DNA from: Candidatus Dormibacter sp. | Lineage (GTDB): Bacteria > Chloroflexota > Dormibacteria > CF-121 | Assembly (NCBI GenBank): GCA_039922495.1 | Contig: JBDTEO010000015.1 | Coordinates: 844-64,843, forward strand | Length of the DNA: 64,000 bases | Direction of reading: 5' to 3' | Shown: positions 5,822-13,784 of the stretch, in pieces | Position numbering within the stretch: the stretch's first letter is position 1 | Layout of the letters: each line of letters starts with the position of its first letter | The notes under the pieces: model-generated | Database searches by the model: none | The model's input: only the letters and a program-made list of their open reading frames with translations | What the model was told of the DNA's origin: nothing | Made by a program: the position numbers and the translations under genes

Positions 5822-8746
5822 CTATAATGATCGCGGCGGAAGGCTGACCACTTCGCGCCGTTGCGGCGACAGGGCTGGGTCCTCCCGCAGGGCGAGGCCC
5901 ACGGTCTCCTCGATCGTCATCGTCACGCTGGCTCGCCATTGTTCCTCGAAGGCGGCCTCGCCAAGCGCGGCCTGGACGGCCCGAACCAGGCGGTCGTGGT
6001 CCGCCATCTCATAGGGCCGCAGGGGGGAACCGATGCGATCCCGCAGGGTGGCCGCGCTGGCGTAGAGGGTGGCTGCCCGCGGCCATTGGCCCATCTTCGC
6101 GGCAATCGCGGCCAGGTTCTCGAGGCAGCGGGAGATGCCGAACTGCTCGGTAGTGTCGAATTTCGACAGGGCACTCCGGAGAAGGGTGCTGGCCTCGTCG
6201 GCGTTCTCCTGCAGCCCCGCGATGATGCCGAGCTCGCACAGGCTCTCGGCTTCGAACTCGGTGATATTCACCTCGCGCGACAGTTCGAGACTTTCCTGCA
6301 GGAGCGCGGTGGCGCGTTCCCAGTCACCCTGGCAGCGGGCGACGATGCCGAGCAGGCGGAGCGTGCTGGCGACGTCGACCTTGTCTTTGGCTTCGCGCAC
6401 GAGGAGGAGACTTTCTTCGAGGAGTGAGGAGGCCGGGGCATAGTGCTCCTGGGCCAGCTCGACTTCTCCCATCAACTGGAGCGCGATCCCGATCTCACGG
6501 GTATCCTGCGCCTCGCGCGCGAGGGCGAGCGCCTCCTCGAGGAGGGACATCGCCCGGGGATAGTCACCGCGGGCCAGCGCCCCGAAGCCCAGGTGAGTCA
6601 GGGCGAAGCCGATCCAGGGCTTGTCCCCGGTCTTTCGGAAGAGGGCGAGGCTTTCCCCGTGCAATCGTTCGGCGCGTTCGTAGTCGTCCTGGGCGTGGAG
6701 AGCGGCCGCAAGGTTCTGCAGCGCAAAGGCCCGGCCCCAGTCGTCGCCGAGCTCTTCGTAGATGGCCAGGCTCTCCCGCTGGCGCAGGATCCCCTCGGCG
6801 TACGCACCCTGGTAGCTGGTCAACAGCCCATGCCAGGCGAGCGCCCGCGCGCGCAAGGCCGTACGCGCTTTGCCGCCGGCCCGCAGCGCGCGGTCAAGCC
6901 AGTCGCGGCCCTCGTTAAAGCGTCCACGGGCCCGCCAGAAAAGGCCGAGCGATGCCGCGAATTCCAGCGCCTGTTCCGCCTCGCCGGCGGCGAGGCAGCA
7001 TTCGAAGGCCGCCCGGAGGTTCTCGAGCTCAGTCTCCAGCCGTTCGAACCACGCGAGCTGGTTCGGACCGTGGAGTTCCTGTTCGCCGTGGCGGGCGACC
7101 TCGAGAAACCACTCGCGATGCCGGGTTTGCAGCGGCCGGTCCTCACTGGCTGCCGTGACCCGTTCGGCGACATACTGCCGGATGGTTTCGAGCAGGCGGT
7201 ATCGGGGCACATCCCGCTCCTCGTCCACGACGAGCAGCGACTTGGCCGCCAGGGCGTCGAGCAGGTCGAGGATTTCGTCGGCGGTCAAGGGGTCCCAGGC
7301 GCAAACCTCCTCGGCCGCCTCGAGCCGGAACCCGCCGGCAAAAATCGAGAGCCGGCGCAGGAGGGCCCGCTCGGATTCTCCGAGCAGCCCGAAGCTCCAG
7401 TCGATGGCCGCCCGCAGGGTCTGCTGGCGGGGGAGCGTGCGGCTCCCGCCGGTCAGCACGCGGAAGCGGTCCTTCAGGCGGACGGCGAGTTGGTCGACGG
7501 TCAGCATCTTGAGCCGGGCCGCCGCCAGCTCGATGGCGAGCGGGATGCCATCGAGGTCGTGGCAGACCTGGCTGACCAGCGGCATCGTCTTCTCGGTCAA
7601 GGCGAACGACGGGTTGACCGCACGGGCCCGGTCGGTAAAGAGCGTGATGGCGGCGGACTCGGCTACGATCTCCAGGGGCAGCATCCGCTTGGGGTCCGGC
7701 ACGGTAAGCGAAGGGACCTTCCAGACGGTCTCGCCCGTGACGCCCAGACCCTGGCGGCTGGTCGCGACGATGCGGAGCTGCGGGCATTCCTGCAACAGCG
7801 CCTCGGCCAGCTCCGCGCTGGGTTCGATGAGATGCTCGCAGTTATCAAGGATCAAAAGCACCTCGCGGGTGTGCAGGTACTCGATCAGGGTTGCGGTCGG
7901 GGAGCGCCCCGGTTGTTCTCGCAGACCGAAGACCGTCAGGACTGTGGGCGCCACCAGGCCCGGATCGGAGATGGCGGCCAGCTCGGTGAGCCAGACACCC
8001 TGTGAGTACGACTCGATCACCTCGGCGCCAAGCTGGATGGCCAGGCTCGTCTTGCCCATGCCGCCGGGCCCGGCTAGAGTAACGAGCCGCTCGTGCGCCA
8101 GCAAGGCATGCAGCTCGGCCAGCTCGTCGCGTCGGCCGACGAAGCTGGTCAGCCGGAGCGGCAGGTTGTTGCGACGAAGATTCAGGCTCTTCAGCGGCGG
8201 AAACTCTGAGGGCAGGCCGCCAATATCGAGCTGGAAGATGCGCTCCGGTCGGGGCAGGTCCTTCAGGCGATGCTCCCCAAGGTCGCGAAGGCTGATATCC
8301 GAGGCCAGCGCCTTCTCGATCAGGGCATGGGTCGGCTCGGAGAGGACGACCTGACCGCCGTGGCCGGTCGCCGCGATTCGCGCTGCCCGGTGCACTTCCA
8401 GCCCGATGTAGTCGCTGCCAACCACGCGGGCGTCGCCGGTATGGAGGCCCATGCGGACCCGCACGGGAAAGCCCTCCGGCCAGGTCTCGGCCGCGAGCTC
8501 GCGCTGGGCGGTAACCACGGCGTCGACCGCCTTCACGGCACTGGCGAAGACGACAAAGAAGGAGTCGCCTTCAGTCCCCATCTCGTAGCCGTCGTTGGCG
8601 GTGATCGCCCGGCGCATTACGCGTCGTTGCGCCGCGAGCACGTCGATCCAGCGTTCACCGAGCTCCTGGACCATCAGGGTGGAGCCCTCGATATCGGTGA
8701 ACAAGAACGTCACGGTGCCGGTCGGTAGTGTCCGCTCGGCGTTCAT
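5822..8746 (-). CDS. STAND-type class III adenylate/guanylate cyclase (CHD plus NB-ARC/AAA plus TPR array)
   Basis: N-terminal FLFTDIEGST...GLHTGDA cyclase homology domain; P-loop LAGPGGMGKTSLA; long C-terminal TPR-like repeats. Confidence 0.85.
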   Translation of the reverse strand: MNAERTLPTGTVTFLFTDIEGSTLMVQELGERWIDVLAAQRRVMRRAITANDGYEMGTEGDSFFVVFASAVKAVDAVVTAQRELAAETWPEGFPVRVRMGLHTGDARVVGSDYIGLEVHRAARIAATGHGGQVVLSEPTHALIEKALASDISLRDLGEHRLKDLPRPERIFQLDIGGLPSEFPPLKSLNLRRNNLPLRLTSFVGRRDELAELHALLAHERLVTLAGPGGMGKTSLAIQLGAEVIESYSQGVWLTELAAISDPGLVAPTVLTVFGLREQPGRSPTATLIEYLHTREVLLILDNCEHLIEPSAELAEALLQECPQLRIVATSRQGLGVTGETVWKVPSLTVPDPKRMLPLEIVAESAAITLFTDRARAVNPSFALTEKTMPLVSQVCHDLDGIPLAIELAAARLKMLTVDQLAVRLKDRFRVLTGGSRTLPRQQTLRAAIDWSFGLLGESERALLRRLSIFAGGFRLEAAEEVCAWDPLTADEILDLLDALAAKSLLVVDEERDVPRYRLLETIRQYVAERVTAASEDRPLQTRHREWFLEVARHGEQELHGPNQLAWFERLETELENLRAAFECCLAAGEAEQALEFAASLGLFWRARGRFNEGRDWLDRALRAGGKARTALRARALAWHGLLTSYQGAYAEGILRQRESLAIYEELGDDWGRAFALQNLAAALHAQDDYERAERLHGESLALFRKTGDKPWIGFALTHLGFGALARGDYPRAMSLLEEALALAREAQDTREIGIALQLMGEVELAQEHYAPASSLLEESLLLVREAKDKVDVASTLRLLGIVARCQGDWERATALLQESLELSREVNITEFEAESLCELGIIAGLQENADEASTLLRSALSKFDTTEQFGISRCLENLAAIAAKMGQWPRAATLYASAATLRDRIGSPLRPYEMADHDRLVRAVQAALGEAAFEEQWRASVTMTIEETVGLALREDPALSPQRREVVSLPPRSL

Positions 8747-8827
8747 GGGTTTTGTGCTGCGCAGCTTACGCGGTCGAGGCTGTCATCGGGCCGGCCCGGG
8801 CAGTGATCCCAGGCCGGCCGCGGTCGT

Positions 8828-13070: not shown

Positions 13071-13079
13071 TGCCTGCGT

Positions 13080-13784
13080 TCAGGCGAGCTTTCGAAGTTC
13101 GGCCGGCCGGACGATCGTGATGAAGCCCTTCTCGAGCGCGATATCGCCGCGGGCGACGAGCCGGGCGAGGGCCCGGTTCACGTTTTCGCGACTCGCGCCG
13201 ACCATGCCGGCCAGCGTCCGCTGGGTCAGCCGCATCCGGATTCGCCGACCCTGGGCGCTGGCTTCACCCTGCGACTCCGATAGGTCCAGCAGCTTCTTCG
13301 CGACGCGGCCGGGGATGTCGAGGAACGCCGCCTCCGAAAAGGTCTCGTCGGTGGCGCGGATGTAGGTGCTGAAGAGCGTGACCAGGTGGCGCACAGCTTT
13401 CGGATGCGCGTCGAGGAAGGAGAGGAATGCCTCGCGCCCGAGCGTCAGGCACTCGGTCGTCTCCATCGCCTGGGCGTCGGCCGCTCGCACCGATCGCTCG
13501 TCGAAGAGGGCAAGCTCACCAAAGGTATCGCCCGGCAAGAGGACCGCATAGACGACCTCTTCGCCGCCACGACCGATGTGGCCGATCTTGACCTGTCCGC
13601 TGACGATGATGTGCAGGACATTTCCTGGGTCGCCTTCGTGGAAGATGGTGGCGCCCCGCGGAAAGTTCCTCGACTTCACGCTGGCAGCGAGCGGCTCGAG
13701 CTGATCGGCCGGGAACCCCTTGAACAGCGCCGTCGCGGAAAGAACCGTGACCGGGTTCATAGGGGACATTTTGCGCCTTGACAT
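13080..13784 (-). CDS. Crp/Fnr-family transcriptional regulator (cNMP-binding plus C-terminal HTH)
   Basis: GDTFGELALF cNMP motif; C-terminal RTLAGMVGASRENVNRAL HTH. The start may be one of the internal Met at 13769 or 13760. Confidence 0.8.
   Translation of the reverse strand: MSRRKMSPMNPVTVLSATALFKGFPADQLEPLAASVKSRNFPRGATIFHEGDPGNVLHIIVSGQVKIGHIGRGGEEVVYAVLLPGDTFGELALFDERSVRAADAQAMETTECLTLGREAFLSFLDAHPKAVRHLVTLFSTYIRATDETFSEAAFLDIPGRVAKKLLDLSESQGEASAQGRRIRMRLTQRTLAGMVGASRENVNRALARLVARGDIALEKGFITIVRPAELRKLA

Follow-up and report, generated by a model that had tools for sequence, protein, structure and literature searches.

A conserved cassette for the putative cyclic-nucleotide-controlled processing of a small NHLP-tagged protein in Candidatus Dormibacterota

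The locus at positions 5,822-13,784 of a 64,000-nucleotide stretch of Candidatus Dormibacter sp. DNA (contig JBDTEO010000015.1, positions 844 to 64,843; the whole stretch is hereafter the window) encodes a membrane protease with two cyclic nucleotide-binding (CNB) domains, and raises the question of what this enzyme cuts and how the cutting is controlled. A model-made first-pass annotation had described the locus as an island in which every gene makes, binds or probably responds to a cyclic nucleotide. All six open reading frames that it listed are present at their positions, and the recurrent synteny across loci supports the view of the island as a genuine, conserved unit of function built around the sensing of cyclic nucleotides. 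In our reading, for which the chances are judged to be slightly better than even, the locus would be a conserved cassette in which a small NHLP-tagged protein is processed under the control of a cyclic nucleotide. The small protein, which ends in a tail of repeats, is probably cut by the protease. Both statements were derived from sequence comparison and concern the following genes and domains.

10133..12319, plus strand: 728-aa protein with a RiPP recognition element (RRE; RiPP, ribosomally made peptide that is modified post-translationally), an M50 core of the site-2-protease (S2P) type with about six transmembrane (TM) helices, and two CNB domains; hereafter the protease
10250..10477, plus strand: RRE, a PqqD-like winged helix (aa ~40-115)
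10817..10831, plus strand: HExxH zinc-binding motif (H229, E230, H233) within a TM helix
11093..11122, plus strand: NxxPxxxxDG motif (N321, P324, D329, G330), the second S2P signature
11558..12268, plus strand: tandem CNB-A (aa ~476-590) and CNB-B (aa ~598-712)
12319..12555, plus strand: 78-aa zinc-ribbon protein
12645..13019, plus strand: 124-aa NHLP-clan small protein with a repeat tail; hereafter the peptide

Close homologues were found in metagenome-assembled genomes of Candidatus Dormibacterota. A genome scan resulted in 55 loci, in which the relatives were labelled L001 and onwards; the window's clade consists of L001-L022, which carry full-length protease homologues of 55-86% identity. 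The protease alignment contained 17 homologues with identities of 51-86%. Domains were called with Pfam and NCBIfam against the curated cutoffs (gathering thresholds, GA), and an additional Pfam pass was performed at E<=10.

The protease carries two stretches of PF00027 (cNMP_binding) with 154 bits and an E-value of 9e-46. Its residues 58-398 matched the daptide intramembrane metalloprotease family NF041824 (2.2e-52, 178.5 bits, cutoff 300), and a weaker match was obtained with the YydH/LiaK RiPP HExxH family NF058609 (1.5e-10). The HExxH and NxxPxxxxDG motifs lie in predicted TM helices and were invariant in 17 of the 17 homologues; HExxH was invariant also in 143 distant representatives. Judged by these motifs, the fusion of an M50 core to two CNB domains is predicted to be catalytically intact. 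The phosphate-binding cassettes, on which the first-pass annotation had made the proposed nucleotide sensing depend, are intact and likewise invariant in the 17 homologues, both in CNB-A (F538, G539, E540 ... R549, A551) and in CNB-B (F665, G666, E667 ... R676, A678, T679). The sequences R-E-A and R-N-A after the cassette Arg are not diagnostic for cAMP versus cGMP, and the closest solved relatives of the CNB pair are the regulatory subunits of PKG and PKA.

At the N-terminus of the protease no PqqD match was found by sequence with Pfam. The N-terminal domain of the AlphaFold2 (AF2) model folds as a three-stranded sheet followed by three helices, a winged helix which matches known RREs. The highest structural scores were those of TfuB1 with its leader (11.2; rmsd 2.2 over 81 residues) and TbiB1 (10.2), followed by PqqD (9.2), the RRE of PbtF (8.3) and then LynD, NisB, MibB, MccB and TglI. 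As the protease contains six hydrophobic segments, the RRE and the CNB pair should be located on the same side of the membrane, presumably the cytoplasmic one. The architecture of the protease is RRE, M50 core and two CNB domains, and within M50 the enzyme falls into the branch of the RiPP leader peptidases, together with MpaP and EpeP/YydH. A comparison of the full-length model with the PDB was also tried as a guide to the membrane core and was set aside as uninformative, the top matches being to CNB domains only.

The exhaustive search with the RRE-M50 part (HMMER) returned 8,776 relatives at E<=1e-3, of which 338 remained at E<=1e-30, and the top 150 matches form at least 80 clusters at 50% identity. 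Two CNB domains were detected by local hmmsearch in 81 of the 99 top representatives with a length of at least 600 aa. The homologues are annotated in the source databases as "cyclic nucleotide-binding domain-containing protein" or "CRP-like cAMP-binding protein/Zn-dependent protease", and the JGI name is "putative peptide zinc metalloprotease protein". The view of the first-pass annotation that such a protease had not been characterized was in agreement with our full-text searches, which covered few subscription journals and yielded no paper describing it. An additional block of TM helices is present in a clade of "long" proteases of about 1,100 aa. The Myxococcota homologue L038 (9878-11938) was excluded due to its degenerate HExxH motif (ISRALALQA) and the lack of the zinc ribbon; in L038 and the second Myxococcota homologue, L054, an RRE-like region and both CNB domains are retained, and the two are possibly pseudo-proteases.

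The second component, the peptide, consists of an NHLP-clan domain (aa 1 to ~50), conservation up to residue ~66 and a tail rich in A, S, T, N and E which includes (NEVAS)x6. Residues 5-46 matched NF038399, the "Os1348 family NHLP clan protein" model, with 1.6e-8 and 34.5 bits (cutoff 40), and the match to PF14407 (Frankia_peptide) was weak, 20.9-21.7 bits versus a cutoff of 48. The syntenic relatives in L023 and L059 exceeded the NF038399 cutoff with 64.8 and 52.9 bits, respectively. A leader profile built from 12 loci matched the crystal structure of Os1348 (6lk7) at 9.5e-6, followed by nitrile hydratases (alpha chain) and by an NHLP leader. The window peptide is a borderline, divergent member of the NHLP clan. 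The "Nif11-like leader" of the first-pass annotation was approximately right, as the domain belongs to the NHLP clan and ECOD places Frankia_peptide together with Nif11, ComX and NHase_alpha. In the sources these peptides are annotated as "hypothetical". Because the protease carries an RRE and its neighbour a leader-type domain of the NHLP clan, this soluble peptide is the likely substrate.

In the peptide gene the tail is encoded by a 15-nt tandem repeat of 6.1 copies (12906-12997). The tails of the relatives follow about 65 conserved residues and are built from units of 4-8 residues which differ between the genomes:

NEVAS: the window
SAESA: L001
AQTAE: L002
AANT: L004
AGSAE: L005 and L017
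GTVD[AT]: L008 and L009
ASTLE: L010
Q[AS]TVES: L011 and L012
AASQID: L014
ARNT: L016
ARLTERAA: L022
KRVAS: L020 and L021, in which the leader domain is missing

The number of copies varied between nearly identical leaders. Codon differences between the units were counted in all three frames of the arrays, which had been delimited by Tandem Repeats Finder on DNA alone; the pairwise counts are not independent of each other. In the coding frame 715 of the 866 differences were synonymous (0.83), and the corresponding values of the other frames were 0.09 and 0.02. The in-frame excess held in all 13 loci and included pairs of synonymous codons that are more than one step apart, Ser TCG/AGC and Arg AGA/CGG. 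An excess restricted to the coding frame indicates that the amino acid sequence of the unit is kept by selection within each genome. This selection speaks against a meaningless filler and is compatible with a multi-copy product or with a multivalent binding array. The peptides of close relatives have a conserved short end after the repeats, [SG]-S-x-L-[TS]-[SNM], with SSTLTN, NSALTN and GSHLTS as examples; the window peptide ends with KLSME (~13002-13016).

According to the first-pass annotation, the proposal depended on the protease fusion being linked to the downstream small genes in other genomes, and such linkage was found in all loci with full-length homologues. In L001-L022 a zinc-ribbon gene starts 2-50 nt after the protease gene in every locus, and the leader-domain gene comes next in most of them. 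The zinc ribbon follows the protease also in L023 and L034. In 14 loci (L001, L002, L004, L010-L015, L018, L020-L023) the gene of a CRP-family regulator adjoins the cassette, in one orientation or the other, and L034 too has a cassette-adjacent CRP gene. At greater distance, the Anaerolineae locus L023, whose protease has 1112 aa and an identity of 37%, combines, in this order, a CRP gene, two NHLP-clan peptides, a FecR/Big_3_5 protein, a CHASE2 cyclase, the protease and the zinc ribbon. NHLP-clan genes recur beside proteases of 30-40% identity in L023, L064 and L065; the PF14407 peptides near the proteases of L064 and L065 have short tails without repeats. The zinc ribbon adjoins the protease in L056-L060, L063 and L064. 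In L065 a 1373-aa cyclase-AAA_16-TPR gene lies divergently adjacent to a protease of 36% identity, as in the window. The long proteases of L057 and L058 are followed by a TPR protein and an alpha/beta hydrolase (L057:13504-15698, L058:10051-12131), and that of L063 by a B12 radical SAM enzyme. A methyltransferase gene is located near the peptide gene of L065 (2654-3370), and a 377-389-aa gene of the Ion_trans_2 type (K+-channel-like) follows the peptide gene in the place of CRP in L003 (3273-4406), L006, L007 (12238-13371) and L017 (2376-3545).

The cargo of the NHLP-type domain changes between the lineages. In L059/L060 (728-aa protease, 39% identity) the protease and the zinc ribbon are followed, in this order, by an M16 peptidase, an extracytoplasmic function (ECF) sigma factor and a 140-aa protein (L059:10811-11233). 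This protein has an N-terminal zf-HC2 anti-sigma domain (29.8 bits, above GA), and its residues 73-132 match NF038399 with 52.9 bits, above the cutoff. The actinomycetal locus L034 contains a divergent ECF sigma gene and a ZAS-like protein (8838-9398, minus strand) with a weaker C-terminal NF038399 match, 1.8e-5. No TM segments were found in the anti-sigma proteins of L059 and L034. The comparison of our own narrow leader profile with the two proteins by hhalign was weak (P 0.036 and 0.12), and the question was resolved with the NF038399 model. The domain is thus joined to a repeat tail in the window's clade, to a short tail in L023, L064 and L065 and to an anti-sigma factor in L059/L060 and L034. 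Since it travels with the protease on different cargo, the simplest reading is that of a handle gripped by the RRE, and these fusions suggest that the NHLP-type domain would serve as the docking handle of the protease.

The control of the cassette was analysed with the following elements.

10084..10112, plus strand: promoter P1 of the protease/zinc-ribbon operon, TTGACG-17-CATAGT
10074-10046, minus strand: divergent promoter-like site
12544..12559, strand unassigned: candidate CRP-type box AGTGA-CAAATG-ACACA
12604..12609, plus strand: -10-like hexamer GATACT of the peptide-gene promoter
12631-12639, plus strand: strong Shine-Dalgarno sequence AAGGAGGTG of the peptide gene
13040..13063, plus strand: intrinsic terminator 3' of the peptide gene, with a 9-bp stem
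13080..13784, minus strand: 234-aa CRP-family regulator

The 234-aa protein contains a cNMP_binding domain (88.1 bits) and HTH_Crp_2 (57.1 bits) in Pfam, in accordance with the earlier description of a convergent CRP-family regulator. With 99.5 bits it remained below the cutoff of the E. coli CRP equivalog, 266. Its recognition helix, SRENVNR, keeps R-E-x-x-x-R, the residues with which E. coli CRP reads TGTGA. The hexamers of P1 were invariant in nine aligned loci with divergent flanks. The CRP-type box overlaps the stop codon of the zinc-ribbon gene, its core was present in 18 of the 23 loci scanned, and in an alignment of 18 loci it forms an invariant block within variable surroundings. It is the sole perfect match in the 64-kb window; with one mismatch allowed, 10 matches were found and 4.8 expected. 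In clade 2 the box of the peptide gene is the perfect palindrome TGTGT-N6-ACACA. The -10-like hexamer is conserved as NATNCT in the 18-locus alignment and the -35 region is poor. The centre of the box would lie approximately 60-65 bp upstream of the likely start of the peptide transcript, at roughly -62 to -65, a spacing which by analogy with established CRP biology would be that of class I CRP sites. The bidirectional terminator proposed for the two convergent genes was not borne out, the T-run of the hairpin at 13040-13063 being confined to the plus strand.

A third conserved GTG half-site follows the box at ~12572. Between the box and the -10 hexamer the window contains, at 12554-12581, a conserved GACAC-N9-GTGTC inverted repeat and then a conserved CGTCGCTTC block; the repeat may represent extra half-sites or a second operator. 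An RNA hairpin at 12554-12576 was considered and rejected (no covariation, consensus of -5.1 kcal/mol) and the signal was read instead as DNA half-sites; the Rfam scan of 9900-13900 revealed no known RNA element. Upstream of the protease operon no CRP box is conserved in the window's clade. In clade 2 (L011, L012, L013, L018, L020, L021) the palindrome GTGTCGTTTGACAC is located ~30-60 nt upstream of the protease start and overlaps the -35 of the operon, which suggests that the same regulator also acts at the protease promoter of that clade.

A candidate source of the nucleotide is encoded next to the cassette.

5822..8746, minus strand: 974-aa protein with class III cyclase homology, a STAND-type NTPase region and TPRs
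8828..9982, minus strand: 384-aa secreted protein, rich in Q, N and T, with a Cys-rich C-terminus

The 974-aa protein had been called a cyclase-NB-ARC-TPR STAND protein. The cyclase and TPR parts of the name were retained: the cyclase domain (aa 4-171) matched Guanylate_cyc, PF00211, with 50.2 bits (GA 21.9), and TPR_12 (2.5e-37) and TPR_MalT were detected with no C-terminal helix-turn-helix (HTH). For the middle part, Walker A (GPGGMGKT) and Walker B motifs are present and the matches to NB-ARC, nSTAND1, AAA_16 and NACHT were all below GA. The best solved relative of the cyclase is Ma1120. Among the six residues canonical for catalysis and specificity (two Asp, Lys, Asp, Asn, Arg), both metal-binding Asp residues and the Arg are kept; Gly replaces the adenine-specifying Lys and His the catalytic Asn, and the same substitutions are common to the orthologues of L004 and L010. 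The claim that this protein makes cAMP was therefore kept as far as class III cyclase homology is concerned, the production of cAMP being unproven with Lys replaced by Gly and Asn by His. Mycobacterial-type proteins such as Rv0386 combine a class III cyclase, a STAND-type ATPase and TPRs in the order predicted for the window protein, and non-canonical substrate-defining residues are shared with the Rv0386 type and Ma1120. The window cyclase differs in the absence of the C-terminal LuxR HTH and in the additional Asn to His change.

Other linked cyclases (L010b, L014, L023) have the canonical residues. Cyclase-domain genes were found in the flanks of nine loci (the window, L001, L004, L010 with four, L012, L014, L018, L023, L065), and none in the flanks of L005, L007, L008, L013, L020, L022 and L034. 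The linked enzymes are of the STAND, CHASE2 and reordered-STAND types, and the 64-kb window has no cyclase other than the one adjoining the cassette. A functional link is supported by the fact that cyclases of non-homologous architectures have been recruited into one and the same neighbourhood. The membership of the 384-aa protein in the system is uncertain. It had been called curlin-like, for which no Pfam or NCBIfam match was obtained at E<=10. Two paralogues of its gene adjoin the cyclase orthologue in L004 (16721-18898) and it is linked nowhere else; in L023 the unrelated FecR/Big_3_5 secreted protein occupies the equivalent position, adjoining the CHASE2 cyclase. Just 3' of the window's cyclase gene lies a putative neutral zinc metallopeptidase (4886-5788, minus strand; PF04228, 2.3e-77) which is not conserved in the other loci. 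On the other side, an ArsR-family HTH gene overlapping an AHSA1/SRPBCC gene (13778-14643) stands directly beside the CRP gene, and homologous pairs were found a few kb from the cassettes of L004 (5483-6218) and L020 (3678-4400).

With these components the following course of events can be proposed. The linked cyclase, in the window of the STAND-TPR type and elsewhere of CHASE2 or other STAND types, would raise the level of the cyclic nucleotide. The CRP-family regulator would bind the TGTGA-N6-ACACA-type box and activate the peptide promoter with its weak -35, and the substrate would thus be made only at a high nucleotide level. The same nucleotide, bound to the tandem CNB domains, would release or open the protease. 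The RRE would dock the NHLP-clan domain of the peptide, and the M50 site would cut between this handle and the repeat tail. The freed tail with its strain-specific units, NEVAS in the window, might be exported or further fragmented. The zinc ribbon, present in a fixed ratio with the protease, would be an obligate accessory, acting as an adaptor, an inhibitor or a co-substrate. In this scheme we infer which nucleotide is involved and in which direction it gates, that the peptide is the substrate and where it is cut, what becomes of the product and what it does, and the part played by the zinc ribbon.

A reading in terms of signalling seems to gain indirect support from the predicted fusion of the NHLP-type domain to soluble ZAS anti-sigma factors beside ECF sigma genes (L059/L060, L034). 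In its widest form, which we regard as unlikely, the cassette would be a signalling device in which a cyclic-nucleotide-gated, RRE-guided membrane protease acts on any protein with an NHLP handle. The device would free an ECF sigma factor from a soluble anti-sigma factor with such a handle in some lineages, and here it would release numerous copies of a strain-specific oligopeptide of 4-8 residues from a precursor with tandem cores; the units would be pherotype-like signals, possibly sensed by the TPRs of the STAND cyclase, which would close an autoinduction loop.

Several observations weigh against the processing of an NHLP-tagged peptide as described above. The match of the protease to Peptidase_M50 (PF02163) was below the threshold, 24.2 bits versus a GA of 27.2, although many of its homologues do have a precomputed PF02163 match. 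Its score was below the curated cutoff of NF041824 as well, and that of the peptide was just below the cutoff of NF038399. The RRE was assigned with an AF2 model built on a shallow alignment of 17 sequences. The hydrophilic tail is unlike the known products of M50 enzymes that act on RiPPs. In L018, L020, L021 and L034 the peptides are short, basic and devoid of the NHLP domain, and no NHLP-type peptide was seen beside the proteases of L056-L058 and L063. The basic peptides follow the zinc ribbon (L020:13409-13636, L021:5770-6048, L018:12454-12564, L034:12401-12529); those of L018 and L034 are rich in Lys and Ala, and the (KRVAS)n of L020 and L021 resembles the NEVAS of the window. The cyclase of the window lacks the canonical Lys and Asn. 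That the box is a target of the adjacent CRP-family protein is what we infer, and the box persists in L003, L006, L007 and L017, where no CRP gene is adjacent. The cassette contains neither a modification enzyme nor an exporter or an immunity gene, and the term RiPP in the strict sense is therefore not applicable. Finally, the protease is accompanied more often by the zinc ribbon (32 of 34 testable loci) than by an NHLP-type gene (~24 of 34), and the zinc ribbon could be the true conserved partner or substrate.

The last point leads to the main rival explanation, the other three being less well supported. According to it, the zinc ribbon is the dedicated partner or substrate of the protease, the peptide is regulated separately by CRP and shares the neighbourhood in some lineages, and the output is the nucleotide-gated cleavage or release of the zinc ribbon. 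The 1-nt overlap noted in the first-pass annotation was confirmed as the base shared by the ATG of the zinc-ribbon gene and the TGA of the protease gene, and the zinc ribbon is translationally coupled to the protease. It adjoins the protease also in the lineages without an NHLP-type gene (L056-L058, L063), it has seven invariant Cys residues (C3, C6, C14, C17, C22, C53, C56) and a conserved central segment, and its family of 45 homologues, all annotated as hypothetical, was found in this context only. In contrast, the binding of leader-type peptides is a known property of RREs, and an NHLP-clan domain is found again in three divergent lineages, the anti-sigma fusions included. Neither a TM segment nor a region resembling a leader is present in the zinc ribbon, which is missing from L062 and L065. 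On balance this explanation was considered improbable. The earlier assignment of the zinc ribbon to DUF2180 (PF09947) was not reproduced, as the window protein gave no match at E<=10; the homologue in the clade of 39% identity (L059) reached 20.4 bits (GA 22.2) over 18 residues. The zinc-ribbon profile resulted in marginal matches to C5HCH/HIT-like zinc fingers only in the PDB.

The second alternative is the classical regulated intramembrane proteolysis proposed in the first-pass annotation, in which a cAMP-gated S2P would cut a membrane regulator encoded elsewhere and the small genes would be accessory. The intact M50/S2P motifs and the presence of protease relatives beside pairs of ECF sigma and anti-sigma factors are in its favour, as is SpoIVFB, whose CBS domain is an example of a nucleotide-sensing accessory domain in an S2P. 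However, neither a sigma factor nor an anti-sigma factor nor a membrane regulator with a single pass is encoded in the window cassette, the anti-sigma factors of L059 and L034 have an NHLP-type domain instead of a TM segment, and the RRE points to soluble leader-tagged substrates. Of the original proposal the fusion of an intact M50 core to two CNB domains was thus retained, whereas the membrane-anchored substrate, for which no candidate is present in the cassette, was not; as a whole we consider this course very unlikely.

An ordinary antimicrobial RiPP or bacteriocin cluster, with the enzymes and the transporter encoded elsewhere and the CNB domains and CRP tying the production to the nutritional state, was given little credence as well. 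In its favour, antibiotic activity has been connected with Os1348, whose surroundings form a RiPP-like cluster; near some relatives there is a B12 radical SAM enzyme (L063:13390-14997) or the methyltransferase gene of L065, and the tandem-CNB "bacteriocin-type transport-associated protein" TIGR03896 is a partial match of the protease. In contrast, no modifying enzyme, PCAT/ABC exporter or immunity gene was found to be conserved in any of the 23 loci of the Dormibacterota clade, and the tails, hydrophilic repeats of low complexity without Cys, do not resemble known antimicrobial cores. Lastly, a functionless, slippage-prone and disordered tail behind a folded NHLP-type domain, which itself would be the functional entity, for example a regulator which the protease sets free or destroys, agrees with the variable copy number among nearly identical leaders, the unit lengths of 4-8 residues without a common structural period, the relatives with short non-repetitive tails and the folded dimer of Os1348, but is hardly probable in view of the synonymous unit differences found in the coding frame only, including the Ser and Arg codon pairs.

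If the cassette processes an NHLP-tagged peptide, its nearest known counterpart would be MpaP, which in the daptide paper is a site-2 protease with an RRE fused to its N-terminus and serves in leader removal. The two proteins share the order of an RRE and an M50 membrane core, the homology extends over residues 58-398 of the window protease, and for MpaP an RRE-dependent leader removal was proposed. The window protease differs by its two C-terminal CNB domains and by its score (178 versus the equivalog cutoff of 300). In contrast to the daptide clusters, the window cassette has no tailoring enzymes (oxidoreductase, aminotransferase, methyltransferase), its peptide ends with ...KLSME and not with Thr, and an NHLP-clan leader takes the place of the daptide leader of the ELExMEAP type. 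Three more M50 enzymes that act on peptides of ribosomal origin, EpeP, TglG and TmoG, are named in a review, and of these EpeP is thought to cleave and export. EpeP/YydH and TglG/TmoG, of the epipeptides and pearlins, are similar to the window protease as membrane M50 enzymes with soluble ribosomal peptides as substrates; they have no nucleotide-sensing domain, and their clusters contain a radical SAM epimerase or MNIO.

The published counterparts of the peptide and of the CNB pair are likewise partial. Os1348, a small antibiotic-related protein of 85 aa, forms a dimer and comes from a RiPP-like cluster of Pseudomonas sp. Os17. The N-terminus of the window peptide is a borderline, divergent match to its domain, also that of PF14407, but the context of Os1348 consists of GNAT, HExxH and SagB-type genes and PF14407 was defined in ATP-grasp contexts; both systems lack tails of tandem repeats, proteases with CNB domains and zinc ribbons. 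TIGR03896 resembles the CNB pair as a tandem CNB protein near NHLP/Nif11 peptide systems (partial match, 9.9e-22, 77.7 bits, cutoff 161), whereas it is a separate, soluble and uncharacterised protein beside ABC exporters and the pair is here fused to a protease. Literature linking RiPP proteases or S2Ps with cyclic nucleotide-binding domains was not found in the searches, which covered few subscription journals. None was found that names Franean1_4349, and cyclic nucleotides are not mentioned in Haft 2010.

In S2Ps of the SpoIVFB type a cytoplasmic CBS domain couples the activity to a nucleotide. The coupling of an S2P to a cytoplasmic nucleotide-binding regulatory domain is therefore common to SpoIVFB and the window protease. 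The sensors differ, CBS and ATP versus tandem CNB and a cyclic nucleotide; the substrate of SpoIVFB is the membrane-associated pro-sigma K, and SpoIVFB has no RRE. The known RiPP leader peptidases and S2Ps are controlled by the availability of the substrate, by prior site-1 cleavage or, in SpoIVFB, by ATP. To our knowledge, no RiPP leader peptidase or S2P is switched by a second messenger. The parts of the cassette are all of known kinds, and what appears to be new is their combination: a putative second-messenger-gated, RRE-guided M50 protease with a dedicated zinc ribbon and an NHLP-tagged cargo.

The hosts of the cassette are uncultured soil Dormibacterota, a group of which almost no regulatory biology is known. 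The protease family would couple cyclic-nucleotide signalling directly to the processing of peptides or proteins at the membrane, with a matching CRP arm acting on the same substrate. The repeat tails, fixed within a genome and replaced between genomes, may represent a peptide precursor with multiple tandem copies, which would be unusual in bacteria. Judging from the anti-sigma fusions, the NHLP/Nif11-type "leader" may act as a general targeting handle for regulated proteolysis, and such a role would blur the distinction between natural-product biosynthesis and signal transduction.

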